NCBI GenBank assembly: GCA_019429125.1
Contig: JAHYJO010000005.1
Coordinates: forward strand, 1-63,862
DNA: 63,862 nucleotides
DNA from: Nanobdellati archaeon
GTDB lineage: Archaea > EX4484-52 > GLR71
Reading direction: 5' to 3'
Below the pieces are notes generated by a model that was not told where the DNA came from, ran no database searches, and worked only from the letters and a program-made list of their open reading frames with translations. Both the position numbers and the translations under genes were made by a program. Positions within the stretch are counted from its first letter, which is position 1; each line of letters begins with the position of its first letter. Below, in pieces: positions 4,690 to 37,200 of the stretch.

Positions 4690-4690
4690 T

Positions 4691-5260: not shown

Positions 5261-5592
5261 ATGGATGTTATTTATTTTGTGTTACGTCCTATGATTATGT
5301 CACCCTAGGGATACGTTTAAGTTTTCATAACAAATTATCAACAAAACAAAAAGTTCTTTATACACATCTCAATTAACTATATAAATGTGACCGACTAATA
5401 TATCTTATAGTGAAAAACAACTTTTCCTATGCTTATTTAAGGTGGTTTTAAAAGAAAACAAAGTATTAAAGACAATTCTGGCACAATCTTCGTAAAATGA
5501 TAAGATTTATGCCTTTGCCGAACTTGTTTTTTCAAATACTCCAACAATATTATAATTAGCAAAAGATATTGACTTTTATTGATGTGAAACAG

Positions 5593-17895: not shown

Positions 17896-18978
17896 TTGGT
17901 GTTTGGTCGTTTCAAAAAAAAGTTAAATGAAGTCATACAAAAAGTTTCAGAGACTGTTACTCCTACAGACTCTAGAGAAAAATCAATTGAACATCATGAA
18001 CTTGTCGAGTCAGAATCTATTATTTCAGAGAATTGCGCAGATATAAGGTATTTAGATAAAAACACAAAAGACAAAAATCAAAAAACCAAAAAGACAATTT
18101 CTGAGAAATTAAAAAGCGCAGTTAAAGTAGTCTCTGAAAAAAAGATTGATGCTGATGTCCTAGACAATGCACTGTGGGAACTTGAACTTGTCCTTCTTGA
18201 AAACAATGTGGCCTCTGAAATGTCAGAAGCAATCTGTACCGAGATAAAGATGTGCCTTGTTGGAAAGTCAGTCAGCCGTTTTGAAGTAAAAAACATAATT
18301 GAAGAGACTTTCAAAAAAAATGTACGGGAAAGTCTTGAGTGTGAACCTCTTGATATTTATGGTATCATAGAAAAAAACAAAGCAGAAAAAACCCCAACAC
18401 TAATCATGTTCTTAGGCTTTAACGGCGCCGGAAAAACCACAAACCTAGCAAAGTTAGGTTATTTATTAAAAGATAAAGGCTATTCATGTGTATTCGCGGC
18501 AGGCGACACTTTCCGTGCAGCTGCAATCCACCAGCTGGAAGTACATTCTGAAACCCTTAAAATTCCGATGATAAAACACGACTATGGTTCAGATGCGGCA
18601 GCAGTTATTTTTGATGCAAAAAAACACGCAAAAGCCAAAGGTATTGATGTAATCCTTGCAGACACGGCAGGCCGTACACACATGAACAAGAACCTTCTTG
18701 AAGAATTAAAAAAGATAGTGAAAGTTAACAGGCCGGATATAAATATTTTGGTTGTAGAATCAATTGCAGGAAACGACATAGTTGAGCAGGGTCGAGTATT
18801 CAGTGAAGCCAGAGTTGATGGTATTATCCTATCCAAATGGGATGTTGACCCAAAAGGTGGAGCAGCATTATCATTAACAAAAGCTATTGACAAACCGATA
18901 GTGTTTTTGGGTACTGGTCAAGATTATAAAGACTTAAAAGAGTTTAACATTGAAGAGGTCATAGATAATATAATTTGA
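17896..18978 (+). CDS. ftsY: Signal recognition particle receptor FtsY
   Basis: GFNGAGKTT, GDTFRAAA, DTAGR, SKWDVDPKGGAALS and GTGQDYKDL. Confidence 0.96.
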   Translation: MVFGRFKKKLNEVIQKVSETVTPTDSREKSIEHHELVESESIISENCADIRYLDKNTKDKNQKTKKTISEKLKSAVKVVSEKKIDADVLDNALWELELVLLENNVASEMSEAICTEIKMCLVGKSVSRFEVKNIIEETFKKNVRESLECEPLDIYGIIEKNKAEKTPTLIMFLGFNGAGKTTNLAKLGYLLKDKGYSCVFAAGDTFRAAAIHQLEVHSETLKIPMIKHDYGSDAAAVIFDAKKHAKAKGIDVILADTAGRTHMNKNLLEELKKIVKVNRPDINILVVESIAGNDIVEQGRVFSEARVDGIILSKWDVDPKGGAALSLTKAIDKPIVFLGTGQDYKDLKEFNIEEVIDNII

Positions 18979-19097
18979 TGTATAAATCTAAAATATCAAT
19001 CAAGATATCATTAATTTAAAGAATTATAATATTTATCAGATAACGAATGATTTATATATGTGTTGAACCTATAACTAATACAAAAGGTTGTGAATTT

Positions 19098-19589
19098 ATG
19101 AGCAAGAATATTTCTGTTGATATAAAAGAGGGCACATTGACCTTCAAGGTAAATCCTAATGTATATCCGATAGGTGTAATATTTCAAGCCGCTGATGTAT
19201 TTATAGAAAAAGCTTATGTTTATATTGAGGGCGACCCAGAAGAAGAGATATCTGTAACACTGAAACCAAAAGAAGATAAAGCCAATTTAGAGGATTATGC
19301 AGGCGAATTCAACAATGAGCTTGTAAGCTATGCTGCATATTTTGTAAGGTCACAAGTGAACAGGGATGTTCGCGAAGCTATGCTTAAACGTGCTTTCTTC
19401 TCAGTCTCACCAAACAATAATTCAGAAACCAAAGATGAAAAAGAATTCGAGTCAAAAAAGCTTGAGAAAGTAAAGATTGATATAGGTTCAAAAGTACCTA
19501 TAATGGATAATATTGAGGATGATGACACATGTTTAGAAGACATCTCAAAACCCTGGGATGAACAGAAAGGTAAGATTGATAATTGCTGA
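19098..19589 (+). CDS. hxsD: His-Xaa-Ser system protein HxsD-like
   Basis: VNPNVYPIGVIFQAADVFIEKAYVYI...GEFNNELVSY...RDVREAML. First gene of the Hxs cluster; ATG 19098 is preferred over 19047. Confidence 0.7.
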   Translation: MSKNISVDIKEGTLTFKVNPNVYPIGVIFQAADVFIEKAYVYIEGDPEEEISVTLKPKEDKANLEDYAGEFNNELVSYAAYFVRSQVNRDVREAMLKRAFFSVSPNNNSETKDEKEFESKKLEKVKIDIGSKVPIMDNIEDDDTCLEDISKPWDEQKGKIDNC

Positions 19590-20574
19590 GTTAGGTCCTA
19601 TGGAAAATTCAATTACCTCTGTTGATATAAAATTTGGATATAGTTGTAACAATAACTGTGTGCATTGTGTTATTGCCGGTCATGTGGATCGTCTTAAAAA
19701 AGAGAACAAGCCAATAGACCGTACAACTGATGAGATAAAAGAGCACATTCTTGATGCAAAATCAAAAGGTGCAATGTCAGTAGTATTCACAGGCGGCGAA
19801 GTAACTATAAGACCTGATTTTCTTGAACTTCTTGAGTTTTCAGAATCAAATGGCGTGCATCCCGGTTTACAAACCAATGGTCGATCTTTTTGTGTCAGGC
19901 AATTTGCACAGAAAACATTAAATATGGTGCCTAACCTCCATTTTGAAGTAGCCCTACACTCCTCAAAAAAAGAGATTCATGATAAAATCACAAGGGTAGA
20001 TGGATCATTTGATCAGACCGTAACTGGCATTAAAAATCTAATCCTCCTCGGTGCAAAAAGCGTAAATTTCAAAGTGGTGATATCACGCAGCAATTTCAAA
20101 GACTTAAAAGACATAATTGCTCTTGCAAAAGACCTAAACATAAACCAAGTGGATATAGCATATCCTCATGGTATGGGCAATGCACGAAAATATTGGTTTG
20201 ATATAGTGCCTAAATACACAGAAATACATCCATTCGTTCTTGAGGCAGCCACCTTCGCAAAGGAGAACAATGTAGAGATTTCATTTGAAGCAATACCTTT
20301 ATGTTTCCTTGCGGGATTTGAAAAACATGCTTCTGAACTTGAATTTATAATACAATATATGAATGGTAAGTCAAGCGAACTGCGGCAAGTGGGGGAACTA
20401 GAAATAAACTGGCAGACTGAACGATTGAGGATAAAGACAAAACTGTCCCAGTGCAAAAAATGCAGTTATTTCAATGTTTGTGAAGGTGTATGGTGTGAAT
20501 ATGTTGAATTTTACGGAGGAAATGAATTTGCACCTGTTAAAGGAAAGACATTAACCTTAAAAGATATCTTATAA
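19558..20574 (+). CDS. Radical SAM protein, HxsC-like (paralog 1); true start may be 19600
   Basis: CNNNCVHC, FTGGEVT, LQTNGR and C-terminal CKKCSYFNVCEGVW. Confidence 0.85.
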   Translation: MNRKVRLIIAELGPMENSITSVDIKFGYSCNNNCVHCVIAGHVDRLKKENKPIDRTTDEIKEHILDAKSKGAMSVVFTGGEVTIRPDFLELLEFSESNGVHPGLQTNGRSFCVRQFAQKTLNMVPNLHFEVALHSSKKEIHDKITRVDGSFDQTVTGIKNLILLGAKSVNFKVVISRSNFKDLKDIIALAKDLNINQVDIAYPHGMGNARKYWFDIVPKYTEIHPFVLEAATFAKENNVEISFEAIPLCFLAGFEKHASELEFIIQYMNGKSSELRQVGELEINWQTERLRIKTKLSQCKKCSYFNVCEGVWCEYVEFYGGNEFAPVKGKTLTLKDIL

Positions 20575-20636
20575 GCTATAAAATAAATAGATTGTATTTA
20601 TATAACTTCAGAAAAAATTATAGTTAGTGTATTATT

Positions 20637-20894
20637 ATGTTGCCGATTGAATTCAAAGACAAAGACAATGCAAAGATATCATTCAATTCCGATTTTTATA
20701 GTATGTACTCCCTTTCAGAAGTTTGTGAAAGGTTCCAGTCAATATTTAAGATGAAGGTAGAATACCAAAGAGACAATAAAAAGATAAATGTTTATTTTAG
20801 ACTAAAAGAGAAATTGACACAAGACGAATTCAAGACTGCACTTCTTGAATTTATGAATCATGCGATTCATGAAGAAGTAAGTGTAGTTAAATGA
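20637..20894 (+). CDS. Second small HxsD-like protein
   Basis: ISFNSDFYSMYSL...LEFMNHAI parallels the pattern of the 19098 protein. Lies directly upstream of hxsB. Confidence 0.55.
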   Translation: MLPIEFKDKDNAKISFNSDFYSMYSLSEVCERFQSIFKMKVEYQRDNKKINVYFRLKEKLTQDEFKTALLEFMNHAIHEEVSVVK

Positions 20895-20904
20895 AGATGA
20901 TAAT

Positions 20905-22371
20905 ATGGGTAAAACACAGTCAGTTGATATGGATAAATATATAATAGGTAGCTACACCCATAAGCAGTTATCTCCAGGCAGAATCCTTGTGACAGCACCA
21001 CACGGTGGTTGGGCAATATTAGATGACAAAGAATTCAAGCTTTTAAGGTTGGGAGAAGTTGAGAAAGACTCTAATTTATATTCACTTCTATTTAACGAGG
21101 GCATAATCCTTTCAGAAAATAACATTCCTTTTGCGACAAATCAGTGCAGAAACAAATTCATTCAACTCTCAATTGCGACAACACTACACATCTTGACACC
21201 CACCTTAAGATGCAACCAGAAATGTGTATACTGTTATGCTGCATCAAAACCCGAGAACGACAAGACTTACGATATGACAGAAGATACTGCAAGAGCAGTT
21301 GTTGATTTCATATTTCAAGCACCATCCAATAAACTTACAATTGAGTTTCAGGGCGGAGAACCGCTTCTTAATTTTGATATTGTTAAGTTTGTAGTTAAAT
21401 ACGCAAAAGAAAAAGCTAAACAGACAAAAAAAGATATTAATTTCAGGATTGTGACAAATCTAACCATCATGGACGACGAGAAACTGTCATGGCTTGTCGA
21501 AAACAAGATACTATTAAATTCATCTTTTGACGGTCCAAAGATAGTCCATGACAAAAATCGTTTCTATGATAACGGAAAAGGAACCTATGATGAAGTTACT
21601 GCCTGGATAAAAAAACTTAAAGATAAAGATATACATGTAGGCTTTATGCCTACAATAACACGACATTCACTTCCTTACTGGAAAGAGATTATTGATGAAT
21701 ACCTAAAATATGGACAGAACAGGTTCTGGGCGCGACGGATGAATGTTGGCGGGTTTGCAGTAGATACCTGGAACAAGATAGGTTATACTTCAGAGGAATA
21801 TCTTGATTTCTGGAAAAAAGGACTTGATTACATAATAGAGCTTAACAAGGATGGTAAAGAAATAGTTGAGGGCACAATTAACATCTTCCTAAAAAACATA
21901 ATCTTCTCAAAAAAGTATCAGGGTTTTGTATGTCTTGCGTCCCCCTGTGGTTGCGCATGGTCTCAAGTTTCATACAACTACAAAGGTGACATCTACACAT
22001 GTGACGAGGCAAGAAGCTTTGATGTTTTCAAGTTAGGAAATGTAAAAGAGACAACATATAAGGATCTTTATTCATCATGGGATGTCTTAAACATTGTTGA
22101 TATGACAACAGGTGAATCTTTTGATTGCGCAGAATGTGTATATCATCCATTCTGTGGACCATGTATAGTTGACGAATACGGTGAGCACGGTAACATTATA
22201 AAGAAACCGAATTCATTCAATTGCCGAGTGAAAAAAGGTATTTTTGAACACATCTTCAACAACTTGATGGAAGACAAAGAAAAATGGGACATTGTGAAAG
22301 GTTGGCTGATAAATTCTGACAAGAAATCATGCACACCCGATAAAGACTGTAAATGCAAAGAAAAATCTTAA
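20905..22371 (+). CDS. hxsB: His-Xaa-Ser system radical SAM/SPASM maturase HxsB
   Basis: LHILTPTLRCNQKCVYC, TIEFQGGEPLLNF, SPCGCAWSQVSYNYKGDIYTCDEAR and CAECVYHPFCGPC, with an N-terminal extension. Confidence 0.85.
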   Translation: MGKTQSVDMDKYIIGSYTHKQLSPGRILVTAPHGGWAILDDKEFKLLRLGEVEKDSNLYSLLFNEGIILSENNIPFATNQCRNKFIQLSIATTLHILTPTLRCNQKCVYCYAASKPENDKTYDMTEDTARAVVDFIFQAPSNKLTIEFQGGEPLLNFDIVKFVVKYAKEKAKQTKKDINFRIVTNLTIMDDEKLSWLVENKILLNSSFDGPKIVHDKNRFYDNGKGTYDEVTAWIKKLKDKDIHVGFMPTITRHSLPYWKEIIDEYLKYGQNRFWARRMNVGGFAVDTWNKIGYTSEEYLDFWKKGLDYIIELNKDGKEIVEGTINIFLKNIIFSKKYQGFVCLASPCGCAWSQVSYNYKGDIYTCDEARSFDVFKLGNVKETTYKDLYSSWDVLNIVDMTTGESFDCAECVYHPFCGPCIVDEYGEHGNIIKKPNSFNCRVKKGIFEHIFNNLMEDKEKWDIVKGWLINSDKKSCTPDKDCKCKEKS

Positions 22372-22376
22372 GATTC

Positions 22377-23369
22377 CTAATCAACTTTTCCGATTTCATC
22401 AACAAATTCCTTTGCACTTGTTATTTTTTCACCTAAAACTGGCTTAAATTCTGAAATACCAAAAACATCCGGATACTCTTTCCAGACACCCATACACACA
22501 TTAAAATATTTGCATTGTTTGCAGACATTGAATTTAGTGCGTCTGCCTACCTCAAGATCAAACAGTATACTTTCTTTAGAGTTATCATTATCGCGTATAC
22601 TTTTATCTGCCTCAATTGATGTGATAATGCTTGTCTGTATATCATAATTATATTTTTCATATCCTTTCATAAAACAGAAAGGTATTGCGCCAAATTTAAT
22701 ATCTAATCCTAATTTAACTGCATAATCTATAGCTTTTTTGATGTGTGGTGCAATTTCAGTATGGTTCACTGCCACATCTTTCCAATTGATAAGAAGATTG
22801 CCGTTCATCTGCGGGGCTGATAAATTATACTGTTTTGCACCGATATCTTTTGCAAGTTTTGCAATGTTAACAACATCTGTATAATTATATTTATTTATAA
22901 CCGTCTTTATATTAATATTTTTGCACCCAACATCAACAAGATTCAGTATTCCTGTTATCGTTTGTCTAAAACTGCCACTGATACGAGTAATCATGTCATG
23001 AACTTCTTCTTTAGTGCTATGTATAGGTATTGTGACAGACAAATCTGGTTTTATATGCATTATATTTTCACTGAATTTCTTGTCAGCAAAAGTCCGACCA
23101 TTGCTCTGTATAGACACTTTCATTTTATTTTTTTTAACACATTGTGCAAGTTCTAAAAAATCAGGTCTTATAGTTGCTTCTCCACCTGTGAAAGTTATTG
23201 ATTTGTATCCATCTTCAGCATATTTATTAATTGCTTTTTCAAGTTGAGAAAAAGTTTTGTCAAGTGGTAATTTTCGTGTTTTCAAACCCTCTCGTGTATT
23301 TTCCATAAAACAATGTATACATCTGTTGTTACAGGTATGTCCGACTATAAGATCTACATGTTTTGGCAT
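22377..23369 (-). CDS. Radical SAM protein, HxsC-like (paralog 2)
   Basis: CNNRCIHC, FTGGEATIRPDF, IQSNGR and CKQCKYFNVCMGVWKEY. Confidence 0.85.
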   Translation of the reverse strand: MPKHVDLIVGHTCNNRCIHCFMENTREGLKTRKLPLDKTFSQLEKAINKYAEDGYKSITFTGGEATIRPDFLELAQCVKKNKMKVSIQSNGRTFADKKFSENIMHIKPDLSVTIPIHSTKEEVHDMITRISGSFRQTITGILNLVDVGCKNINIKTVINKYNYTDVVNIAKLAKDIGAKQYNLSAPQMNGNLLINWKDVAVNHTEIAPHIKKAIDYAVKLGLDIKFGAIPFCFMKGYEKYNYDIQTSIITSIEADKSIRDNDNSKESILFDLEVGRRTKFNVCKQCKYFNVCMGVWKEYPDVFGISEFKPVLGEKITSAKEFVDEIGKVD

Positions 23370-23420
23370 AATTTTATATATAGACTACATTTTAAAAAGT
23401 TTTGCAACTAAAATATATTT

Positions 23421-24428
23421 ATGTCTGGCTTTAGTTTCTGGGTACCATTCAATGGTGATTTCAAACTTCTTGAAGAATTAAAGGTACATTTTGCAAATGA
23501 TATAAATGGTAACAAGATAGAAGGTCTCTATTTTCCAGCATCTCAAGAATATTTCGGTTCAGCCAGAGTAGTCAAGAAATTAACAATAGATAACGCAAAA
23601 AAAGTAATTGATTTTTGCAAAAACATGGGCTGGAAATCAAACATGCTTATGAATTCAAGTTGTGGTGGTGCTGATTGGTATTCACCAAAGACAATATCAA
23701 AAACACTTTTATTAATTAAAAATATGAAACTTGCAGGTTTAACCTCAATTACTATTACAAATCCAATATATCTTCAAAAGATAAAAAAAGAGATACCTGA
23801 TATAAACATAATTGTATCAGTAATTTCTGAGATTGAATCAGTCCAGAGAGCTAAATTTTTTGAAGATTTGGGTGCGGATTCATTTGTCCCAGACCGCGAT
23901 ATAAACCGCAATCTTGAACTTTTAAAAGAAATAAAAGATTCAACTGACATGAACATGATTCTGATGGTAAATGAAGGCTGTCTTTACAGATGTCCTCAAA
24001 GAAACATCCATTATAATTTCATATCACATTGGTCAACAACAGAAAAAGAGAAATATTCAGATTTTATGACAAATTATTGTGTCAATTTAAGGGGGGTAAA
24101 ACCCGAAGAACTACTTAAAATGCAATTCATCCTTCCTCAACATCTAAAACATTATGCGTGTATAACATCCTCATTTAAAATTGTGGGTAGAACAAGGTCA
24201 ACAAAAGATATATTACAGATAACAAAAGCATATCTGGCAGAAAAATGGGATGGCAATATTCTTGATTTAATGTCAAGTGCAACACCTTCTGTACGAGACA
24301 AATATGGTTATGGTATCTCTGCAAATACATTGGATGATATCTTTTTCAAAAAAGTCACAACATGTGATAACAATTGTGAAAAATGCAATTTCTGTAAGAA
24401 TTTTACAGAGAATATCTCATCTTCTTGA
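23421..24428 (+). CDS. Peptidase U32-family Fe-S protein (probable hydroxylase-type enzyme)
   Basis: NMLMNSSC, VSVISEIES, PDRDINRN, LMVNEGCLYRCP, FKIVGR and C-terminal CDNNCEKCNFC. Confidence 0.75.
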   Translation: MSGFSFWVPFNGDFKLLEELKVHFANDINGNKIEGLYFPASQEYFGSARVVKKLTIDNAKKVIDFCKNMGWKSNMLMNSSCGGADWYSPKTISKTLLLIKNMKLAGLTSITITNPIYLQKIKKEIPDINIIVSVISEIESVQRAKFFEDLGADSFVPDRDINRNLELLKEIKDSTDMNMILMVNEGCLYRCPQRNIHYNFISHWSTTEKEKYSDFMTNYCVNLRGVKPEELLKMQFILPQHLKHYACITSSFKIVGRTRSTKDILQITKAYLAEKWDGNILDLMSSATPSVRDKYGYGISANTLDDIFFKKVTTCDNNCEKCNFCKNFTENISSS

Positions 24429-25301
24429 CTGTCCAAGTATCAAAGTTTCTTCAACACATGAATACTCTTTCATATTCTCAACAACTTTTGCTATAATAGT
24501 CTGTATATTATCTTTGAATTCAATAGAGGTCTCATTATTATTACATTTGACATAAAATTTTTCATCAGGATTGATATATGAATATTCAATAATCTCATCA
24601 TAGTTCTTGCTCTCATAAATTTCGTTTTCTTTTTTAAAATTCTGTGAAAACTCATTAAATTTCTCCGAAAATGCATACGAAAAGCCCATCTCAAGATTAA
24701 CAAAGACATTTGTATCTGTTTCATGTATAAAATTACCTTTAAGGACAATCATAATCTCTTTTGTGTCTTGTTCTATATATGAAAATGTGGTATATAAGGT
24801 TACAAGCTTAAATTCTTGTATTTCCCTTGGCATATTTTCAATCATTCTAAAGTATGCAAGATGACCAAAACTTTTGTCTGTGTGTATAATGTTCTTAAAT
24901 ATTTTCATCATTTTTTCATTCTGTGTCATATCACTTAAACTTAGTATATTTGAATCAATATGACTATTGGTCTGTATTAATGTAAACAGAGAATTCTCCA
25001 TTCTCCAGGAAATATATGTTCTTGATTTTTCAATCATTTTTTTTGCAATAATAAATTGTGGTATATATCCGTAATATATTTTTGTGTTTTCTACATCACA
25101 ATCCTCAATAAATTCCAGTTCTGAAACATCTACGTTTTCTTCTTTTAACAACAGAAATGTATCATTTTTGTCCTGATAAACGCAACCATAACGTAAATGT
25201 TTAATATCTCTAAGATTATTGATTATAAATTCTCCAACTTTATATCCATTGTCTGAGATGTCTGGAAGAATTGACCACTTTTCAGATATTAACTCCTGCA
25301 T
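24417..25301 (-). CDS. Hypothetical protein (294 aa) inside the Hxs cluster
   Basis: Long ORF convergent with, and overlapping, the U32 gene end. No motif recognised. Confidence 0.65.
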   Translation of the reverse strand: MQELISEKWSILPDISDNGYKVGEFIINNLRDIKHLRYGCVYQDKNDTFLLLKEENVDVSELEFIEDCDVENTKIYYGYIPQFIIAKKMIEKSRTYISWRMENSLFTLIQTNSHIDSNILSLSDMTQNEKMMKIFKNIIHTDKSFGHLAYFRMIENMPREIQEFKLVTLYTTFSYIEQDTKEIMIVLKGNFIHETDTNVFVNLEMGFSYAFSEKFNEFSQNFKKENEIYESKNYDEIIEYSYINPDEKFYVKCNNNETSIEFKDNIQTIIAKVVENMKEYSCVEETLILGQSRR

Positions 25302-25345
25302 GTATTAAATACCAACTCATACATATTTAAACATTTGTATACTTA

Positions 25346-26419
25346 TTGTTTAATATGTTTGATCAATTTATATTTATGGATTATATTCGGATAATTGTTC
25401 TGATCCTATTTTCAGCATGCATAATAAGTACCGATATAAAACTAAAAAAGATATACAATAAAGATATAATTTTGATGTCTGTAGTAGGATTTATTTTTTT
25501 CCTATTTGGTCTTAACTTTGATCTTTTACCTTCCCTTTTAACAAATTTCAGTCTTGCATTACTATTTGGTATCTTTCTCTGGAAAATAAATATCTGGAGT
25601 GCTGGTGACGGAAAACTGTTTGCAGCATGTTCACTTTATCTCCCATATAAAATGTACCTTCCATTTTTTTCATCACAGTTGATAGTGATTAATGTATTTA
25701 TCCTTGCTTTTTTATTCTGGCTTGTTCCTATGATTTTTAAGACAAAAAGACATGAAAAGATAGATTCATTTAAATTAAGTTTTGCACCAAAGAACATAAT
25801 AAACCTGTCTCTTGTACTTTTCGGTGCCTTTTATTTTATTTGGCAAGGTGTATATCTATTGGGTCTAGGTCTTTATTCTGGTAGTTTCTTGATAAGCCTT
25901 GCGATATCACTTATTACATTTGCAGTACTGCGGAAACTTTTAACTTCCAAAGTAACGTATGTATTTTTGATTCTGGCTTTAGCACGACCATTTTTTGATC
26001 CATCTTTTGCATCGTTTGAAACTCTATTGACTCTTGTTTTGACTATGTCTGCACTTCTTTTTGCAGGTACGGTCGGAAACCTTTCTATGTATATATCTTA
26101 TTCTGAAAAAAAACTTTCGGACATGGGCGTGGGTGATATACCTATCGGTGTACTGGCTAAAGGAAAGAACAAGATAGATGATTTTGGACTATTTATGGGA
26201 AAAGAGTTCAAAAATAAAGAAAAAATACTAAAAACTGGTTTCACATTAGATGATATAGCCAAAGCAAAAAAGATAAGGAATATAGATGGTTTCATAGTAA
26301 AGAAGACAATAAGTTTTGCACCCCTTCTTTGTATCGCCACATTTGTGACAATTTTATTAGGTACTGATATATTACTTTATCTTGCTTCATTAATATATGA
26401 CGGTTGGTTTTATGGATAA
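25346..26419 (+). CDS. A24-family prepilin/preflagellin peptidase (polytopic membrane aspartic protease)
   Basis: STDIKLKKIYN (Asp1), WSAGDGKLF (GxGD-type Asp2), C-terminal ISFAPLL, and many transmembrane segments. Confidence 0.82.
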   Translation: MFNMFDQFIFMDYIRIIVLILFSACIISTDIKLKKIYNKDIILMSVVGFIFFLFGLNFDLLPSLLTNFSLALLFGIFLWKINIWSAGDGKLFAACSLYLPYKMYLPFFSSQLIVINVFILAFLFWLVPMIFKTKRHEKIDSFKLSFAPKNIINLSLVLFGAFYFIWQGVYLLGLGLYSGSFLISLAISLITFAVLRKLLTSKVTYVFLILALARPFFDPSFASFETLLTLVLTMSALLFAGTVGNLSMYISYSEKKLSDMGVGDIPIGVLAKGKNKIDDFGLFMGKEFKNKEKILKTGFTLDDIAKAKKIRNIDGFIVKKTISFAPLLCIATFVTILLGTDILLYLASLIYDGWFYG

Positions 26420-27788
26420 GAAAAAGAAAAAGAAAAAGATTATACTTGTGATTTTTATATTATTAATATTAGTTTTATCTTTGTTTATATTCTATATAGG
26501 GGATACAAATAATTCCGCAACAATGACACATACAAACGGCGAACTCATCTGGCCGACATACAAGCATGATTTTTCAAGAACAGGAAATCTTAACTTAAAA
26601 GAATATGAAATAACAGATGGTTTAAGTATGAGTACGGTAAGTAGCAATGCTCCCGAAAGTATAAACCAGGAATTCTTTGAAACAGGAGATAACCCTTCTC
26701 CAATTTTTGTTGATGTAGACAATGATGGTGATGACGAAGTCATAAGCTATTATAAAAATGTAGTATATGACAAGAAGGCACACACAAGACCTTTCAGAGA
26801 TTTTGTAATGCTCATAGACTACAAGGAAAATCCGACCATGCTTGAGAAATTAGAATTTGGGGAAGTCCCCTTCAGGCGAAAATGGATATTTATCCCAGGT
26901 GGCGAGGTCCATACCTCATTTGCAGCAGGTGACATTGATAATGATAATGATATTGAGATCGTTTTTGGCAGTGATGACAATTATTTATATGCACTTGATG
27001 GAAACGATGGTAAACTGGAATGGAAATTCAAGGCTGAAGACAAGATACGGTCAAGCCCAGCAATAGGCGACATTGATTCTGATGGAATTCAGGAAATAGT
27101 TTTTGGCAGTGACGACGGTTATCTGTATGTTCTTGATGGGACTAATGGAAAACTAAAATGGAAGTTCAAAGCAGGAGATAAGATTCAAAGCAGTCCTACT
27201 TTATTTATTGATAGGGGTGTGCAAGTAACATTCGGGAGTGATGATAAACATATTTATGTTCTTGATGGATATGGAAAAAAGATATGTGATTTCAAAGCGG
27301 AGGGGATAATAAAATCATCGCCCTTAATATATAACGACAACATTGTCTTTTCTGACGTTGATGGAATTATATATTATCTCTCAAAATCATGTAAACTAAA
27401 TGACAAATTTAAAACAGGCGGAAACATTTTAGGTAGTGGCACAATATTTAAAGACCAAGTAATATTTGCAGCAGATGATGGTATGTTATATCTAACAGAT
27501 CCTAAAGGTATAAATGAGCTGATAAACGTGTTTTCTCCTTCAATTTCTACACCCGTCAATATTGCAGATAATTTTATATTTTTATCAACAACTGATGGGG
27601 AACTGATTTCTGTAAATGATACAGGTATTTACACACATTTTAAAAACAACCAGAGTATAGATTTCTCATGTTCTCCGTCTATTGGTGTGATTCAAAAAGT
27701 ACTTAGTTATTCTTGTTTTTATGTACAGGTTGATAATTACAAAAATTACGCAGGGATATTTGTGAATTCATTTATGTATTTATTATGA
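26412..27788 (+). CDS. Membrane-anchored PQQ-like/FG-GAP beta-propeller protein
   Basis: Poly-Lys then a transmembrane helix, WPTYKHDFSRTG, and repeated GDIDxDxxxEIVFGSDD.YLYxLDG..GKLxWKF. Overlaps both neighbouring genes. Confidence 0.8.
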   Translation: MDKKKKKKKIILVIFILLILVLSLFIFYIGDTNNSATMTHTNGELIWPTYKHDFSRTGNLNLKEYEITDGLSMSTVSSNAPESINQEFFETGDNPSPIFVDVDNDGDDEVISYYKNVVYDKKAHTRPFRDFVMLIDYKENPTMLEKLEFGEVPFRRKWIFIPGGEVHTSFAAGDIDNDNDIEIVFGSDDNYLYALDGNDGKLEWKFKAEDKIRSSPAIGDIDSDGIQEIVFGSDDGYLYVLDGTNGKLKWKFKAGDKIQSSPTLFIDRGVQVTFGSDDKHIYVLDGYGKKICDFKAEGIIKSSPLIYNDNIVFSDVDGIIYYLSKSCKLNDKFKTGGNILGSGTIFKDQVIFAADDGMLYLTDPKGINELINVFSPSISTPVNIADNFIFLSTTDGELISVNDTGIYTHFKNNQSIDFSCSPSIGVIQKVLSYSCFYVQVDNYKNYAGIFVNSFMYLL

Positions 27789-28768
27789 TGCAGGGGATAC
27801 AAATGAATTGTGATGTTAATTCTGTTAATTTGCGAATTGGTTATTTTTGTAATAATAATTGTAGTTACTGTATGATTGATGAGAACAAAAAGAAGTTATT
27901 AAAACAAGACAAACCTATATTCTTAACATTTGATAAAATCAAATTACAACTTAATGATTTAATCAAAAAAAAATTAAAATCAATCACACTTACTGGTGGC
28001 GAACCAACAATTAGAGATGATTTTTTTGAAATTTTATATTTTTTAAAACAAAATAATTTTGTTGTAGAACTCGAAACAAACGGTCGTATGTTTGCAGACA
28101 CAACTTTTGCAAAAAAGACAATAAATATCTTTCCGGATTTATATTTTGAAATATCTTTACTTTCCACAATACCTGAGAGTCATGATATGTTAACACGGGT
28201 GTCAAATTCATGGAAACAAACAACAACAGGTATTAAAAATTTAATTAAATTAGGTGTGACTGAGTTTAATATTATTGTTGTAATTACAAAACAGAACTAT
28301 AAGGATATCAAAAATATACCACAATATCTTAAAAGTTTAGGTGATGTTAAATGGACAATTGGTTATACCTTTCCTATGATTCAAGGTAATGCAAAACTAC
28401 ATAGTGTGTTAATAATTCCAAAATATGAACAGATTCAAAAATATCTTTTTGAAAGCATAAAGAATGCATTAAACCTCGGTATTAATTTTAATTTATTTAA
28501 TATGCCTTTTTGTGTTATTGAAGATTATATTAAGTATAGTGTAGAATTTAATAATAATTTAGCACATACTGATTTGTTATTATATGAGTTGGAAGACTCT
28601 ATTAGTACTTGGAACAAGGAACGTATTAACTCAAAAATCAAATGTATATCGTGTAAATCTTGTAAATATTTCAGGTTATGTGAGGGGGTTTGGAATAGAT
28701 ATATTAAAATGTATGGTGTGGATGAATTAGTGCCAATTAAGGGAAAACAAATAAATACCCTTCTATAA
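27785..28768 (+). CDS. Radical SAM protein, HxsC-like (paralog 3)
   Basis: CNNNCSYC, LTGGEPTIRDDF, LETNGR and CKSCKYFRLCEGVW. ATGA overlap with the upstream gene. Confidence 0.85.
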   Translation: MMQGIQMNCDVNSVNLRIGYFCNNNCSYCMIDENKKKLLKQDKPIFLTFDKIKLQLNDLIKKKLKSITLTGGEPTIRDDFFEILYFLKQNNFVVELETNGRMFADTTFAKKTINIFPDLYFEISLLSTIPESHDMLTRVSNSWKQTTTGIKNLIKLGVTEFNIIVVITKQNYKDIKNIPQYLKSLGDVKWTIGYTFPMIQGNAKLHSVLIIPKYEQIQKYLFESIKNALNLGINFNLFNMPFCVIEDYIKYSVEFNNNLAHTDLLLYELEDSISTWNKERINSKIKCISCKSCKYFRLCEGVWNRYIKMYGVDELVPIKGKQINTLL

Positions 28769-28775
28769 TTATATT

Positions 28776-29159
28776 TTAACCATAATTCAAATATACATAA
28801 TTCTTGTGAGCTACGTTAACACTACCATGCCACCCCCCCCAACCATCATCACTATCATGAGAATCATGAGACGAATGTCCACTGCAATGACTTTCTGGCA
28901 CTCCATCTGCAGAACTATGTACACCCCACCCTACCGCCCCCCCACTACCATGTCCAGGATCACAATGATCGTGCAATGCAGAAAGCTGTGCACCTGCAAC
29001 GACTTTTGAAAGAAAACCGACAACATCAATACCTGCAAGCAATGCTCCCATAGAGATTAATGTCTGTTTTGATGCTCCACCTTTTTCTTCAAGCATGAAT
29101 GATTTTAAATCTTTTTTTATTGCAGGAATAAGATTATTCTTAACAGTCTTCTTTTGCAT
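28776..29159 (-). CDS. His-Xaa-Ser repeat precursor peptide (HxsA-like) with pilin-like leader
   Basis: Seven HxS triplets (HGS, HSS, HCS, HSS, HDS, HDS, HGS) in a Gly/Trp-rich C-terminal half. A basic leader FMLEEKG|G is followed by a hydrophobic stretch. Confidence 0.8.
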   Translation of the reverse strand: MQKKTVKNNLIPAIKKDLKSFMLEEKGGASKQTLISMGALLAGIDVVGFLSKVVAGAQLSALHDHCDPGHGSGGAVGWGVHSSADGVPESHCSGHSSHDSHDSDDGWGGWHGSVNVAHKNYVYLNYG

Positions 29160-29387
29160 AACATTATTATTTGTATGTCATGTATATAAATGTTTATCTT
29201 TTTAGGCACTGTTCAAAAAGTGAGTGATGGCTAAGAATGTATAAAAGAGCAAAAACCTAAGTTATTTTACTACAAAAAACAGGTTTTGCTCTATGACTAA
29301 TATACAGATGTGTCTTAATAACTTTAACGGTGTTGAACGATTGCTCAGCATATTTCCTCAAAGCAATGACTTTGAGTTTACTTCTAA

Positions 29388-30931
29388 CCTTAACTCTGCA
29401 CTTTAGGGAATATGTTCAATCCAAGCAGTTCATCTAACTCTTTGACTTTTTTTGGTACTTCTGTAATTATATTTTTGTCTTCAATCTTTAGATTGTATAC
29501 TTTTCCAAATTTTTGTAACAAATCAATCGGTGTAATTTTATGATTTAATTTAGCAGTTTTCAACATTTTTTCGATAGCACAATGAATATATAGCGATAAA
29601 AATGCTATGAATATATGACCAAATACACTTTCATCATCTTGCAGATATAACTTATCTGCATTAAGGACAGTTTTATAAGTGTCAAACATTTTTTCTATAT
29701 TTTCTCGTTTTTTGAACAAATAAAATATTTCTTTTGGTTCAATGTCAAGATTAGATAATATCAGTATTATCCCAGTCCTTTTCATTTTTTCATCAATTTG
29801 TTTTTTGGTAATTTTTCCGTCTTCAAGTTTCATATATAATGTTTTTTGTTCTTCAAGTTTCAGATCCATATCTTCAAAAACATATGCTACACTTTTATCT
29901 AATTTCCTTTTTCCAGACCTTATCAGTCTTTTATGATATATTAAGTGATTATTACAATGTATACGATTTTCATAATATTTACTATTTCTTCGTACGGGTA
30001 ATACATATGACATTTGAATAGTTTCAAGAAATGTCATAATTTCATCTGAAAAGAAACCCCTATCCAGAACCATTATTTTACCTTTAACACCAACTTATTT
30101 TATTGAGGTGTAAAGGGTTTTTATATCCTTTACACTTCCAGGTATTGTCCGAACCATTGTTGGCATCCCAGTATCTATGCTACACATAAGTGCGATATTT
30201 ATCTGAGGTATCTGTAAATGATCTTTATTATATCCTTTTTCAGCTTGACCAATATTCATAGAATGTGAAAACATAGAACTAAAATCATATATCAATTGAT
30301 TGCTTTGATCTGTAAGTTGTTTGAATATTAAATTTTGACCGTCACGATTCATACCTATTTGATGTAATGTCTTTGAAATATTTTTTGGATTTAATTTTGG
30401 ATTTATATGTTCTTGGTTATACAATCTATCCCATGAATCGTTTGTCCGTTTTATAGGCATGTAACCATTTACACGAACCATTGCAAGTGAATATATTTAC
30501 TCCCAACAATCAGGAAATGCTTCTTTAATTACTGATTTTAATGGTTCTATTGCCTTATGCAATAACATAGAATTTCCATATTCTTTTATCGTTCTGATGT
30601 CTGCAGAAGTAATGTTTTTTTGTTTATTTGCAAGAATTAGTCCTTTATCTTTATCGAGTTTTCCTAAATACTTTGAGATTTTTTTAGTTTTTTTAGCATC
30701 TTTGTCCCACTGTGTTGTAGAATTATAAACATAATAATTTTTACCAATCAGCTTGATTTCAAGACACAGTTTACCCTGTTGTCTTTACCCATCCAACCAT
30801 GTTTTTGTCCAGTCCTCCATAATCCCTATTTAGGGATTATACCTTTATAAATCTTTCGGTAAATTTCGAATACAAGAGCTAACTATTAAAAGAATTAACT
30901 GAAATTATACCCTATTTCGGCAAAGTTAAGG
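29388..30931 (-). mobile_element. IS1634-like insertion sequence
   Basis: Terminal inverted repeats CCTTAACTCTGC (29388) and GCAAAGTTAAGG (ending 30931) enclose a DDE transposase. Confidence 0.75.
29390..30820 (-). pseudogene. IS1634/IS4-like DDE transposase with three in-frame TAA stops
   Basis: Single 476-codon frame reading MEDWTKTWL...LIYDFSS...VLDRGFFS...RENIEKMFDTYK. TAA stops at 30785, 30497 and 30095. Confidence 0.85.
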
Positions 30932-31240
30932 TTTATAAATATTTATGTGATAAAATTGATTTTTTGATGAATTTGTTAATATTTTTGAAAATTTAATCCA
31001 TTTAAAAAAATAGTATCCAGTTAAGGGTTGAAAAATTGGGCTTAACTGGATGAGCTCTTCAATGAACAGTGCCATATATCCTACTCCTTTATATTCTTAA
31101 AAATCAAATAATTGTTAGGATTTATTGCTTATAATAGTTAGAATTGATTATTCAATTAACGCACTTATATATTCCTATCAAGAATGGTTAATTTTTTAAG
31201 CAAAAATAGGTTTACAAGATAATTGATTTTAGGTGTATAG

Positions 31241-34200
31241 ATGTCTTTTGAGTTTAATAAATTAAAAAAGAATAATCTGCATGTCTTATTGCTCTTTTTT
31301 TTATTAATCCTTATTCTTATAATTTTAATAAAACCCTACGGCATATATACTGGTAATCTATTAGCCTCAACATCAACCGAATCATTTAGATTATCACCTG
31401 AATCAATTAATCTCTGCAGTATTGAAAATAATATTGCTAATTTATCTTTTGGACCCTTAAATCAGACCTCAATAATTTGCAAAAATGATTCTTATTCTTT
31501 CTCACAATCTTCACCCTCATCATCTTTGCCTTCATCTTCATCTTTATCAGGATTGTCATCTTATCTAGAATTAACATTTTCAGAAATATCATCAGATAAC
31601 TTTAACATTACAGGCACTGACCTAATCTTTGATTGGTACTCTGAAGTTGTCTACGATGCCCAGATATTTTATCAAGCAGATAATGGGACTTATGAAAAGG
31701 TATGTACTCTTAAAATACCAAACACTCAAAGCCAGTCAATTTGTGATTTATCAGACAATATCCAATCCATATCCAATCTGCATAATGCGACAGTGCGCAT
31801 CTACTTCCAAGAAATCCCCATAACCACTACAATATCCAATTTGATAACAGGTAAAGTTTTAGGTGTAATGAACAACAACGAATCACAGACTCAGACTCTT
31901 GACAACTCCTCAAATGATAATATTTCAGTAGATAATACAACAATAGGTGATGAAATAAGTGGCGATATAGATACTTCCAAATCTATTGAAAACAACACCT
32001 TAAATTTGACAGACAACAGTACAATTACAAATATTACTGAATCAGTCAATATTACAACAGATAACATTACTGCCGATAACATAACAATCGAAAACCTAAC
32101 AAATACTACTCTCTCACTTGACAATATAACAACTGATAACCTTACAACAGAAAACATTACAAATTCTACAATAATTTTTGATAATATAACAACTGATAAT
32201 GTCACAATAAACAACATTACTATTGATAACCTCACAACTGACAACATTACCTACACAAATAAAACAATAACTGACAATCTAACAGATACAAATACTAATT
32301 TAAGTTCTAATCATCCAATTTTAGATAACTATACACTAAATATATCCCTTCCATCTCCGGCAGATAACACAACAACAAATAACACATTGACAGATAATTC
32401 ATCCACTCAAAATGCAACAATCCATATTTCAAACATATTTTTAAATATAAAATATATTATCTATAATGCGATAACTCTTAACATGTATTCAGACATTACT
32501 GAATACTTCCCAAACGACAATGTCTCAATCTACATCTCTGGCGACAGCAAGATAATAGACAAAATCCAACTTACAATAGACCAAAACGATTACGAATTAA
32601 AAAACATTTCAGAAAACAAATGGAAATTTATCTGGACTGCGCCACAAAACTCATCAACCAAAGATGTAAAAGTCACAGTCACAGCATATGATTTAAAAGG
32701 CAAACGTCTGGATGCAGTAACATTAAAACTATCTCCCAAAAATATGATTGCTACTTCAATCCCTGAAACAAAAAAAGAGACTGCAGTTAATTCAACAGAT
32801 ATCAAATTCGGTGCAAGATTAATCTATGAGAACAACAGCGCATATAAAGGTGCACAGTTATTTTTTGGTTGCAATCAGACAGATGGCAGTTACACTTATT
32901 TAGGTACAAACATTACAGACGATTCCGGCTGGGCAGTGCTGACCTCAGACAATTCATCAGTACCTGAAGACTGTTTCTTATATGTAGATTACAGAGGAAA
33001 TACAACTTTGCATACTCTTCCAAGTTTCAACAGTTCTTTGGGTCTTCCAGTGGCAATCCCTTACAAACTAAAAGACCTACCGACTGACATAAATATCTAT
33101 GACAGCATAACAGGCGAACTAATCCCTTACAATCAATATGCATCTTTGAAAAGTCCAAAAAAAATCAATCTGCGCCTCGCCGATTCAACCGGTTTCATCT
33201 TCTTTGATTCAGTAGATTTAGATTATATAAATACATCCAAAAGACCATCAATAATCAAGGATTCCAAACTGAAACAAAAGATAGAAAAAAAGACAAAAGA
33301 GACAGTCAACGATTTAATCTGGGTCGAAGCAGATGACTTTGTACCAAACACAACTGGTGGAAAAATAATCCTGCCATCAATAGGTTACAAGACCTTTAAG
33401 TGCGATGGCACACTCGAAGATCCAGATTGTTTTGAAATAGATACCTGTTCAGTATCAGAAAAACCATGTTACGAATATGACAACGGAACTACGATTATCT
33501 ACGTCAATCATTTCTCGGGCGCTTTCAATACAATCAACTGGACAACAGACGATGATTGGAACACGGGTACTCATGTGAACACGACCAGTTCAGCAGGTGA
33601 CCTTATCCTTTCAGGCACAAACACAACCGGATATTATCTTTCAAACACAACTGATACAACTTATACAATAATAAGAATTAAACCTATATGGAATTCAACC
33701 GAGCAGGATGCAAACAAGAACATAACAGTTGAAATCTCAGCAGATAACGGCACAACTTGGTTAACTACCACAAACAACACAAATTACACAACAGGTGCTG
33801 GCATCAGTACAGGACATGAACTAGTATATCGTATAAACTTATCAACAAATGATTCTGCAACCTCTCCGAAAGTCCACGACATAACATTGGATTACTATGT
33901 AATAATTCCAAACATATCAATATCCCTAGATACCGATAAGACTACTGCAACACCTAATGAAAAAATAACAGTTACAGGTTATGCAGTCCTCCAACCAGGT
34001 GATACTGATGTTGTAAATAATATTATGTATCTATGGTTTGATGAAACACTCATAAGTCCCTCTGAGTGGTGGAATACTTCATGGCGATATAGAGTACCTA
34101 TAACTGTTGACACTGGCAATTATGGTCCAATAATAAACGAGAACATATTCAAAAGGATTAATTTCAGACAGATGCTTGACAATCAAGGCATTTCTGAAGA

Positions 34201-37200
34201 TGTTGATAACAATTCCATACGTGTAATTAGTGATACTGGTAAAGAGGTAGAAAGTAATGTAATTTTCTGGTACACAGGCAATGAGGGTCTTGTATGGTTT
34301 TACATTAACACAACAATCCCTACAAATACGGAGAAGATATATTATGTGTATTTTGAGACTACAAGCAATCCAAAAACACCAAAGATATATGCGAGATCAC
34401 CACCACCTGATGTAGCAGTACAGTTTCAGGGTGGTAGCGACAACGGTGGCAGTGGCGGAATAACACGCATCATGGGCGACTACAATGGAAGCTTTACAAT
34501 ATACAATAATGACATACCAAATCCCGGTGCAAATTCACACGATTCTCAATGTATTGCGGATTTCGATAATGATGGGGACTGGGATTATGTGATGAGTAAA
34601 AATACGGATTCAAACATTTATTATTACCGTAATAATGGCAATGGTGACGGTTTTTCAAATTTCACAAGTATGGGCTCAATAGGTACGAGATCTTCAACAT
34701 CCCACTTTATGGCCTGTGCAACGGCAGATTTCAATAAAGACGGAAACATGGATTTCATATCTTTCAGTGATACAAATTGTTGCCGTGACCTATTCTTAGG
34801 GAACGGTGACGGAACATTCAACAAGACTGAAAATGCTCTAGCCAATGGTGTCTATAACAGAGACATATCTGTAGGTGATTTTGATGGTGACGGCAACATG
34901 GATATTGCTATAGGTCATTATGGTGCCTATAATTGGTATATTTATTATGGCTTTGGTGATGGTAATTTTACTGCACCAATTTATATCGGTAATTATGGTG
35001 GTTCAAATGCAGACCCATATGCAGTCGCATCTGGGGACTGGAATCATGATGGTGTTTTAGACATAATTGTAGGTGGTGCATATTATGGTCACGATGGCAC
35101 TGCAAGAAAGAAATTCCAAGGTAAAACTGGTGGTCAAGGACCTTCATATTTCACAGATATGGGCTACTGGACAGGACCTAATGGTATTGATATAGGTGAT
35201 GGTTCAAGATCTAATGTTCATGGTTGGATGGAAGGTTATGACTGGAACCATGACGGCAATGATGATATAATAGGGAATATATATGCTGATAATATTGCAT
35301 CTCAATGCGGTATTTATTATTGGCAGGGCACTTCTGCAGACTGGGGATTTGAGAACGCGGTCAAGTTAGGTGTCGGTGCAAGATGTTGGATGGGTGAAGG
35401 TGGAACATCACCTCAGGTAGGACATAATTTAGGTTACTATGTAATATCTCCAAATGATTTAGAACAAATCCTCATAACAAACAATACTGGATTTTATAAT
35501 TACACATTTATTGCGACATCAGTAACAGGAACACACACACTAAAAATAAATACAACTGATGAAAATGAAGTATATGGTGAAAATTCAACAAACATAACAC
35601 AACCGTCAATAATCATCTCCGACCAACAAGCGATATCTATTGAAAGTCAGACAAAATATATTCTGATAGACGAACAGATAAATATTTCGGTAAAAGTTTA
35701 CAAGAATATTGACAATCCGATTGATTCGGTCTGGGTAAACATAACGATGCCTAATTCAACAGTAAAAACTTATTTTTTAGACAACACAACAAATAGGACT
35801 GAGACACAGATATGGGATGTCATATTAGACACAACATCAGAATTTGATAATTTAATAGGGACGTACAATATAACATTTTATGCAAATTCAACACTTGAAA
35901 ACGGTTCTACAATAATCCAACAAGTGCCTACACAACTGATTAATTTTTATATTCAAAAATTAGTAGTTTTTGTAAAAAATAAAGATGGTTCATCCGTTTC
36001 AGATGCCAATATTATAGTTTATGTTCACAACACTACTGATATTGTCTGTCAAGGTAATACTACTACTAATGGTCAATTTGATTGCAGTGCTGTTGAAACC
36101 TCAAAAGCTTATGATATATTATATGACAATATTCCCGGTCGTTTCTCTCAACTCTGGAAACGTATGGTCTTTATACCTAATAACACAATTGAATTTGTAA
36201 CTCCTTATACATATTCCTGTTCCGATGGAAGCGGTTCAAATTGTGATGTTTACAGCGATCTTGAAGTCCGTGTCTATGAAGATTTAATTAATTTAAAAAC
36301 ACCAGGTGGCAACCTTTTGGCAATCATCCACACAACCACATCCGGACTCTCAAACGACACTAGTGCCACAAACGGTGCCACTATAACTTTTGATAAAAAC
36401 ATAACGTCTGTCTGGGACAATCCAGTATGTACAGATGGTTATTATTATGGTTGGGGCAAAGAATACGATTACGGTGCCGAAGGTTTTATTTTCTTATTTA
36501 ATTCTCAGGATAATATTGTCGGTTGTAATCAAAAAATAAAAATCACAAATGCAACCGGTTCATTCGAATCTTACCTCCTTGTCAATATCTATGAGACCAC
36601 CACCGGTTTTTTATCATGTAGTGGTCATACCAATTCAGAAGGTACGATAAATTGCGGGTTATCTTCAGGTTTATATGACCTGAAGACAGAAAACGGTTCT
36701 TATGCATTAAACGTTTCAAAAAACTCAACAGTCACACTTATTGCCTATGATAGTCCTAAGACTCTTTCCGATTTGACAATAAAACTTACAAATTCTACAG
36801 GTGACGCATTACCATATATCCCATTAAACATTTATGAAAATGACACAGGTAATATAGTTTGTTCAGTCACCTCAAATGAAGATGGATATATCATCTGTTC
36901 CTTAGATTCCGCAAAGACCTATGACGTTTTAAATTATACAAACATTTCATTGCCAGATTCATACATAATTGACATTACTCAATATCTTTTTGAAATACAG
37001 ACATTAGAGTATGGAATACCTATAAAGGACAATCATATAATTGTAAAAGATGGTTCAACGACAAAATGTGATGGTTATACAGACATCAATGGTATGTATT
37101 TGTGCTCTATACAGTCTAATAATTACGATATCTATGTTGGCACAGATAATGAACTAGTCGAAAACGTCAAATTCACATTATCATCCTCTGAGTCTCATAT

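Follow-up and report, generated by a model that had tools for sequence, protein, structure and literature searches.

An expanded archaeal Hxs-type gene cluster, probably for radical SAM maturation and processing of a pilin-like, His-rich surface protein

The stretch of DNA analyzed here, referred to as the window, is a contig of 63,862 nucleotides (C15) of an archaeal genome of 1.16 Mb (93% complete, approximately 33% G+C). Eleven adjoining and tightly packed open reading frames (ORFs), named g1 to g11, were found directly 3' of ftsY, between position 19047 (19098 if the first ATG is taken) and position 29159. They form a cluster related to the bacterial His-Xaa-Ser (HXS or Hxs) system, in which the products of hxsB, hxsC and hxsD act on the substrate HxsA. 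With the letter of the Hxs protein that each gene resembles, and with genes of the minus strand marked, the order is D-C-D'-B, C (-), U32, orphan (-), A24, propeller, C, A (-); the pairs g1/g2, g8/g9 and g9/g10 overlap, consistent with an operon structure. The window proteins were scanned against NCBIfam and Pfam models with curated cut-offs applied. ORF lists and family scans agreed with an earlier reading of the letters alone (the original prediction), which had listed the same 11 genes after ftsY with the same gene types. The features of the cluster and of its right edge are the following:

19098..19589, plus strand: g1, HxsD-like protein; 163 aa from the ATG at 19098, the ORF opening at 19047; overlaps g2 by 32 nt.
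19558..20574, plus strand: g2, HxsC-like radical S-adenosylmethionine (SAM) protein, paralog a; CxxxCxxC at residue 30, C-terminal CxxCx5C; Radical_SAM 67.4 bits.
20637..20894, plus strand: g3, second HxsD-like protein, of the HxsD_rel type; 10 nt upstream of HxsB.
20905..22371, plus strand: g4, HxsB radical SAM/SPASM maturase; TIGR03978 428.4 bits (cut-off 370), profile positions 6-466.
22377..23369, minus strand: g5, HxsC-like radical SAM protein, paralog b; HxsC4 124 bits, HxsC 113.3 bits; 39% identical to g2.
23421..24428, plus strand: g6, U32-family protein; nine conserved Cys including a C-terminal CxxxCxxCxxC; PF01136 40 bits (cut-off 22.4).
24417..25301, minus strand: g7, conserved protein of unknown fold, 294 aa; no family.
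25346..26419, plus strand: g8, A24 aspartyl peptidase, 357 aa; PF01478 27.9 bits (cut-off 26.5); catalytic pair D30 and D88 (GDGK) intact.
26397..27788, plus strand: g9, membrane-anchored beta-propeller; shares 23 nt with g8 and 4 nt with g10; residues 10-39 form an N-terminal hydrophobic anchor.
27785..28768, plus strand: g10, HxsC-like radical SAM protein, paralog c; HxsC4 108 bits, HxsC 100.9 bits; 36-40% identical to g5 and g2.
28776..29159, minus strand: g11, putative substrate, 127 aa; leader, hydrophobic helix and core with seven HxS triplets; HxsA3 19.9 bits (cut-off 65).
29163..31057: IS1634-like insertion sequence (IS) element; its transposase is broken into two minus-strand ORFs, 29390-30073 (227 aa) and 30095-30481 (128 aa).

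HxsB (g4) scored above its curated cut-off and is the sole HxsB-type gene of its genome (genome scan with TIGR03978). CxxxCxxC is present in all four radical SAM proteins; the three HxsC-like ones are mutually 36-40% identical. For g2, g5 and g10 the best-scoring families were HxsC4 (NF038332) and HxsC (TIGR03977), g2 reaching 133 and 97.6 bits, respectively; all these scores are far under the cut-offs of 500 and 267.9 bits, and the three proteins are best described as HxsC-like, not as family members by score. The small protein g1 matched HxsD (TIGR03976) with 40.8 bits (E 2e-10), under the cut-off of 50, and has orthologs in two other loci (L035 and L046); g3 matched HxsD_rel (NF038315) with 32.8 bits (E 6e-8) for a cut-off of 41. 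In a third locus (L056) the HxsD positional homolog clears the cut-off, with 52.5 bits against 50, and the order D-D'-B recurs in L022, L023, L034, L049 and L051. The original prediction had proposed an archaeal Hxs variant and, as a check, a search with the Hxs models: HxsB passed this search, with partners that are HxsC-like and HxsD-like, and HxsA, HxsC and HxsD stayed under their cut-offs. A scan with PADLOC v2 (2023, older than the publication on bacterial HXS) gave no Hxs-named match in the window; g2, g4, g5 and g10 matched viperin (pVip) models only, and two weak matches without bearing on the question fell on g3 and g9.

The putative substrate g11 appears to be laid out like a prepilin: a conserved basic/acidic leader (residues 1-31) comes first, then a hydrophobic helix (32-57) and then a core rich in His, Cys, Asp and Gly (58-127). 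HxS triplets are found at residues 70, 81, 91, 95, 98, 101 and 111, against a mean of 1.17 in the shuffled protein; none of 20000 shuffles reached at least seven. The window has 178 stop-to-stop frames with a length of 60 aa or more, none of the others as dense in HxS as g11, which was also the only leader-bearing substrate found in the 1.16-Mb genome. A second HxS-rich ORF of the genome (contig C17, six HxS in 91 aa) was dismissed, being a tandem DNA repeat read out of frame that longer ORFs overlap. The HxsA model TIGR03979 gave no match to g11.

Comparison of eight archaeal substrates, 78-182 aa long among the loci described below, showed that five leader residues (K15, F21, E25, G27 and K31 in the numbering of g11) are invariant and that the cores vary; one of the loci (L052) has kept the leader in a protein from which HxS is absent. 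The archaeal substrates matched HxsA4 (42-53 bits) and HxsA3 (29-43 bits) best, just under the cut-offs. A profile built from them found 145 matches among 5.8 billion proteins, nearly all unnamed or hypothetical; one, from a Candidatus Omnitrophota bacterium, is labelled HxsA4.

Within its own subfamily g11 could be aligned in a set of 18 sequences, 42-79% identical to it by BLASTP, and the same five leader residues are invariant in all 18. The core motifs HDHCDPGH, HSSAD and SHC are invariant in 18/18, and a C-terminal NY..L.YG is shared as well; the HDSHDS stretch is a private insertion of the window g11. The original prediction took the HxS triplets as the target of modification. Their enrichment in g11 was borne out; a regular HxS repeat was not, since only part of the triplets is conserved in the subfamily, whose conserved core is a set of His/Cys/Asp motifs. 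The core of g11 (71 residues) contains 10 His and is acidic, with eight D+E and one K+R.

Such a composition would suit a surface protein or peptide whose His/Cys/Asp motifs chelate Ni, Zn or Cu, at a site built or made rigid by the radical SAM and U32 proteins and, elsewhere, by a YcaO protein. Besides the three invariant motifs and the ten His, a YcaO gene in one related cluster (L066) and a molybdopterin oxidoreductase with a MobA-like gene inside another (G006) speak for such a product. We nevertheless consider it quite unlikely: the argument is one from composition only, the same residues could equally serve as cross-link sites, and the family scans showed no transporter or metal regulator in the cluster.

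The three-residue spacing of the triplets had led the original prediction to compare them with triceptide cyclophanes. There are likenesses with the triceptide maturases GrrM/OscB, YhhB and AmcB, which are also SPASM-type radical SAM proteins working on short repeated motifs that begin with an aromatic residue or His, and sister clusters of the same phylum carry W-x-x-W-type repeat cores. The analogy was given up: HxsB scored 81.1, 79.1 and 74.3 bits with the three models, for cut-offs of 310, 445 and 425, and the sole measured Hxs modification is +8 Da, not -2 Da (PMC13128918).

HxsB loci were gathered from related genomes (14 loci) and from a species-genome collection (13 loci). One of them, L048, duplicated the contig of L035 and was left out, leaving 24 distinct archaeal and 2 bacterial loci (L047 corresponds to G006:C71); a further set was formed by six metagenome contigs with a g11-type substrate. 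HxsB-like genes (E<=1e-50) were present in 28/42 genomes of the phylum. The labels of the loci are Candidatus Nanohaloarchaea (88-92% identity to the window HxsB), Aenigmatarchaeota, Iainarchaeum, Woesearchaeota, Methanosarcinales and two Firmicutes. The archaeal loci have a common core consisting of an A24-type membrane peptidase, HxsD, the second HxsD-like protein, HxsB and the substrate, clearly seen in L056 from Methanosarcinales, and often have one to six HxsC-like radical SAM genes nearby.

By a jackhmmer search started from g8, a homolog was found beside HxsB in 14/24 distinct archaeal loci and in 0/2 bacterial loci, and both catalytic aspartates, D30 and D88, are invariant in 7/7 Hxs-linked A24 homologs. 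Among the ten archaeal loci without A24, four (L022, L034, L046 and L053) lie on contigs that end at the cluster or just past it; in one (G006:C71) the g8 ortholog of that genome is located on other contigs, adjoining g6-g7; and in three (L031-L033) a polytopic membrane protein, alignable by position only, takes the same place. A g8-type A24 (at least 130 bits) occurred in 9/42 genomes of the phylum, that is in 9/28 with HxsB and 0/14 without it, counts that overstate independence, the genomes being kin. All HxsB/A24-like pairs that share a contig in these genomes (7/7) are within 3.3 kb of each other. The window genome also has a separate, divergent A24 on contig C25, to which the profile of the Hxs-linked A24 gave no match at E<=0.01. 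The Hxs-linked A24 has no match among the NCBIfam models, and a sequence search of g8 against PDB chains gave no match at E<=10.

A model of the complex between g8 and residues 1-62 of g11 scored 0.68, whereas the three controls, unrelated soluble-type proteins and not membrane helices, reached 0.01 at best; the mark applied is reached by 58/80 solved complexes and by 2/110 mismatched pairs. The runs shared at least 91% of the contacts, with a partner pLDDT (predicted local distance difference test) of at least 68. The modelled interface comprises D30 and residues 82-88 of g8 and residues 17-55 of the substrate. The model thus supports docking of the leader and helix of g11 on g8. Processing and membrane display, both put forward in the original prediction, fit the hydrophobic helix of g11, the intact Asp pair of the peptidase and a complex model that passed its controls.

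Archaeal class III signal peptides are processed by the A24 peptidases FlaK, PibD and EppA. The present pair resembles that scheme in the two-Asp A24 fold with a GxGD-type motif, in a substrate with a charged leader, a conserved Gly and a hydrophobic helix, and in the Arc_PepC domain found in the homolog of genome G038 and in proteins of the sister clusters. It differs in that the longer leader of g11 contains an acidic EE(E/K)G block and a polar spacer separates it from a weakly hydrophobic helix, and in that g8 is a separate paralog of approximately 360 aa with extra membrane segments, in a cluster without pilus assembly genes.

A leader followed by a variable core, together with many tailoring enzymes, is also what one would expect of a ribosomally synthesized and post-translationally modified peptide (RiPP) released as a toxin against competitors once its leader has been removed and its core exported, and a subtilase follows HxsB in one related locus (L049). 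Such a product seems very improbable. Cleavage of the A24 type would leave the hydrophobic helix on the product, the core is long (approximately 70 aa) and conserved like a small domain, and the family scans showed neither an ABC/PCAT exporter nor an immunity gene in the cluster.

The remaining accessory genes recur as well. Homologs of g6 are located beside HxsB in L026, L046, L047, L053, L066 and L067, U32 being present in 4/24 archaeal HxsB loci. The U32-family Fe-S enzymes UbiU/UbiV, TrhP and RlhA are O2-independent hydroxylases. With these g6 shares the U32 domain with conserved Cys; it differs in matching the N-terminal third of the Pfam model only (positions 8-86 of 233 of PF01136), in its extra C-terminal four-Cys motif and in its context, which is protein modification. 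Its best PDB match was 5d88 (E 6e-8). The membrane-anchored g9 matched Beta-prop_CGLA (54.2 bits), PQQ_2 (35.9 bits) and FG-GAP_3 (33.7 bits), each over its cut-off, and has orthologs in G006:C77, L066 (382 bits), L067 (290 bits) and L068 (82 bits). For g7 no Pfam, NCBIfam or Atlas relative was found; the set of 5.8 billion proteins contains nine homologs, 46-81% identical, and partial copies lie in L047 and L066. Its AlphaFold2 model, built on an alignment of 10 rows, had a mean pLDDT of 49.3, unusable and too poor for a fold search.

The six metagenome contigs with a g11-type substrate carried HxsC-like genes in 5/6 cases, the propeller in 3/6 and U32 in 2/6; on one of the six (L066), HxsB (753 bits), HxsD' and the g7 orphan were present together. 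Hence U32, propeller, orphan and multiple HxsC-like genes are recurrent parts of one substrate subtype, found on independent contigs with that subtype. Co-occurrence of the accessory genes with HxsB in other genomes, on which the original prediction had staked its reading, was found for A24 and U32 among the archaeal loci as well; the association with the accessory genes is not a matter of chance.

Within the genus, g1-g9 are common to two relatives, G003 and G006, at 77-87% DNA identity, with extra genes inserted in G006. Three others (G001, G002 and G005) have a simpler form, D-D'-B-A, with substrates 30-35% identical to g11. The insertions of G006 include an extra radical SAM gene between HxsB and g5 (L047, 2094-3095, minus strand) and, between U32 and the orphan, the molybdopterin oxidoreductase and the MobA-like gene (L047, 5186-7755, minus strand). 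The YcaO gene of the expanded-type cluster in L066 is located at 8484-10121 (minus strand; 138 bits).

In a further relative, G007, the cluster is absent: ftsY is joined within 133 nt to sequence corresponding to window position 31074. Because of this empty site, positions 19002-31073 (cluster and IS element, approximately 12 kb) are an indel within the genus. The IS element forms the right edge of this island. Its transposase ORFs matched NF033559 with 92.9 and 41 bits, both under the cut-off of 100, its ends are repeated on contigs C2, C5, C21, C27, C28 and C31, and an inverted repeat was found at 29205-29215 and 31063-31073.

Beyond the island the window carries two giant ORFs, one at 31241-44041 (plus strand; 4266 aa) with FG-GAP repeats and one at 45876-55193 (minus strand; 3105 aa). 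In G006 a remnant of 115 nt, similar to the 3' end of ftsY (L060, G006:C2, 1644-2372), lies between the end of a giant ORF and the upstream region of another, which suggests that the junction between ftsY and the giant ORF was duplicated in that genome.

The role of the product was considered against the bacterial system. The original prediction had stated that this system has no established product, which is outdated: according to PMC13128918 (Nat Commun 2026), bacterial HXS blocks phage DNA entry and HxsC binds HxsD; HxsA undergoes a non-canonical N-terminal cleavage and a shift of +8 Da on an SHRSS motif, and each of HxsB, HxsC and HxsD is required for both changes. The same source places 99.7% of systems in Pseudomonadota and 99.6% in the order hxsD-B-C-A, and leaves the protease that cleaves HxsA unnamed. 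HxsA of bacteria reportedly has DNA-binding repeats of basic character and a peptidoglycan-binding domain.

Compared with HXS of E. coli and Klebsiella, the window cluster has in common the HxsB ortholog, HxsC-like radical SAM proteins, small HxsD-like partners, an HxS-rich substrate with an N-terminal hydrophobic export element and expected N-terminal processing, and an accessory, island-like distribution. It differs in its archaeal host, in having three HxsC-like and two HxsD-like proteins in place of one of each, and in the added A24 peptidase, U32 protein, beta-propeller and orphan. Its substrate has an extra conserved leader of approximately 30 aa, lacks a peptidoglycan-binding domain and has an acidic core in place of a basic one; for this last reason, the kind of DNA binding that E. 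coli HxsA achieves with its basic repeats was not adopted for g11. The NCBIfam variant families HxsA3 (NF038309), HxsA4 (NF038313), HxsC4 (NF038332) and HxsD_rel (NF038315) gave the best matches, every one of them under its cut-off.

Taken together, the cluster probably represents an expanded archaeal Hxs system for the radical SAM maturation and processing of a pilin-like, His-rich surface protein. In this pathway g11 would be made with its conserved N-terminal leader, one hydrophobic helix and a His/Cys/Asp-rich core of approximately 70 aa. In the cytoplasm, HxsB (g4, with g3 before it) and the HxsC-like proteins g2 (coupled to g1), g5 and g10 would put covalent changes on the core, and the U32 Fe-S protein g6 would probably contribute a further redox step. 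The substrate would then insert in the membrane with its core outside, and g8 would remove the leader by a cut at the invariant Gly27 or beside it, as prepilin peptidases do with class III signal peptides. The helix would keep mature g11 in the membrane, possibly in company with the anchored propeller g9.

Several observations weigh against this pathway or against the role of its product proposed below. By score, membership of HxsA, HxsC and HxsD fails the NCBIfam cut-offs in the window cluster, the gene order departs from D-B-C-A, and g11 is located 6.4 kb from HxsB on the opposite strand. The IS element ends 3 nt upstream of the g11 start codon, which makes expression of g11 in this genome uncertain. 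The surroundings of Gly27 appear to be a non-canonical class III site: in g11, K26-G27-G28 is followed by ASKQ and then by a helix scoring 1.78 on the Kyte-Doolittle scale, whereas in the pilin-like ORFs of the same genome [KR]KG is followed at once by a hydrophobic stretch scoring 2.3-3.9. Part of the score of the g8-g11 model may reflect generic helix packing. A24 was seen on 0/6 of the metagenome contigs with a g11-type substrate, which are 1.2-10.5 kb long, the L066 cluster reaching the contig end. The acidic core of g11, set against the basic DNA-binding HxsA of bacteria, implies that the bacterial effector mechanism may not carry over, and scans of the window, PADLOC included, found no defence genes near the cluster.

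Among the roles considered for such a surface protein, we would tentatively put first that of an envelope-level barrier against virus entry, a choice favored by the homology with bacterial HXS and by the island behavior, and one that we hold with less than even confidence. The acidic core, the lack of defence genes nearby and the repeated giant FG-GAP neighbors leave room for adhesion or metal binding.

With the same machinery the product could instead be a structural or adhesive modified pilin-like surface protein serving cell-cell contact of an archaeon that has a small genome and is probably host-dependent, with no antiviral function; this we regard as unlikely, if less so than a metal-binding product. 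The prepilin-like layout of g11 and its own A24 peptidase agree with it, as does a core that is acidic and not DNA-binding in character. A g11-type gene lies divergently beside large secreted homologs of parts of the 4266-aa FG-GAP protein in L065, L066, L068 and the window, a giant ORF abuts the cluster in G004:C52 too, and Trp-rich sister clusters adjoin runs of pilin-like genes. However, the sole experimental precedent of the family is antiviral (PMC13128918), the cluster is dispensable in the genus while the giant ORF is retained (empty site of G007), and the family scans showed no pilus assembly ATPase or platform gene in the cluster.

It is a further and still somewhat more doubtful step from the antiviral barrier to the proposal that Archaea, among them small-genome lineages of the DPANN type and some Methanosarcinales, possess an HXS envelope-defence branch of their own, in which several radical SAM enzymes rewrite a prepilin-like protein before a dedicated A24 peptidase frees it of its leader. 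If true, this branch would for the first time connect processing in the style of type IV pilins with radical SAM protein modification, and would point to the kind of protease that is missing from the bacterial HXS model. To our knowledge, few envelope-level antiviral systems are known in archaea; if antiviral, these clusters would be an archaeal extension of such a mechanism.

The cluster is a real, conserved archaeal variant of a known system, undescribed in the literature searched: our searches found no paper describing an archaeal Hxs cluster or a link of A24 to Hxs, and no publication describing the variant families HxsA3, HxsA4, HxsC4 and HxsD_rel. What looks new is the archaeal form itself, with a prepilin-like substrate and a dedicated A24 peptidase. 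A term search of the text of PMC13128918 returned no mention of archaea or peptidases; its supplement may list rare non-proteobacterial systems. The function of bacterial HXS was assigned only in 2026, and the protease that cleaves HxsA and the chemistry were left open in that publication (PMC13128918). For the cleavage step the archaeal clusters name a candidate, the A24 aspartyl peptidase encoded next to HxsD, HxsB and HxsA. For the chemistry they offer natural variation, with one to six HxsC-like enzymes, U32, YcaO, and cores made of HxS, Trp-rich or other motifs. The occurrence of HxsB-like genes in 28/42 genomes of the phylum makes the system, whatever its role, a major component of the biology of its small-genome hosts, and an unstudied one.

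Related loci of other types were also seen. A sister cluster type of the same phylum (L025-L033; for example L026, 8241-11921, and L027, 7566-11941) encodes a small protein of approximately 100 aa whose N-terminus is basic and which has a hydrophobic helix of the EKTGVV type and a core of Trp-rich repeats (W-x-N-W, HCWW). Downstream are an HxsC-like radical SAM gene, an HxsB-like radical SAM gene (220-320 bits, under the cut-off) and a gene for a membrane protein of approximately 290 aa with Arc_PepC, the archaeal A24 C-terminal domain (38.3 bits in L026), in which the A24 catalytic domain was not detected by the scans. Runs of pilin-like genes are often found next to these clusters.

In a genome of another archaeal family (G049; L024, 9256-10536) an HxS protein of 426 aa carries 14 HxS triplets followed by a C-terminal domain of approximately 300 aa of unknown kind, and adjoins a short A24-like ORF, HxsD, HxsB and HxsC-like genes. 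In the Aenigmatarchaeota-labelled L049, the subtilase gene (S8, 134 bits) is located directly after HxsB at 4453-5943, and a long ORF of pure (A/S/G)SH repeats at 7191-7421 runs off the contig end.

Upstream of the cluster, the window contains the housekeeping genes gyrB, gyrA, L31e, eIF6, prefoldin alpha and ftsY, the last of these at 17896-18978 (TIGR00064, 276.3 bits, cut-off 260.7). The gyrB gene (5569-7974) contains an intein (Intein_splicing, 57 bits), located between the GyrB and Toprim domains.

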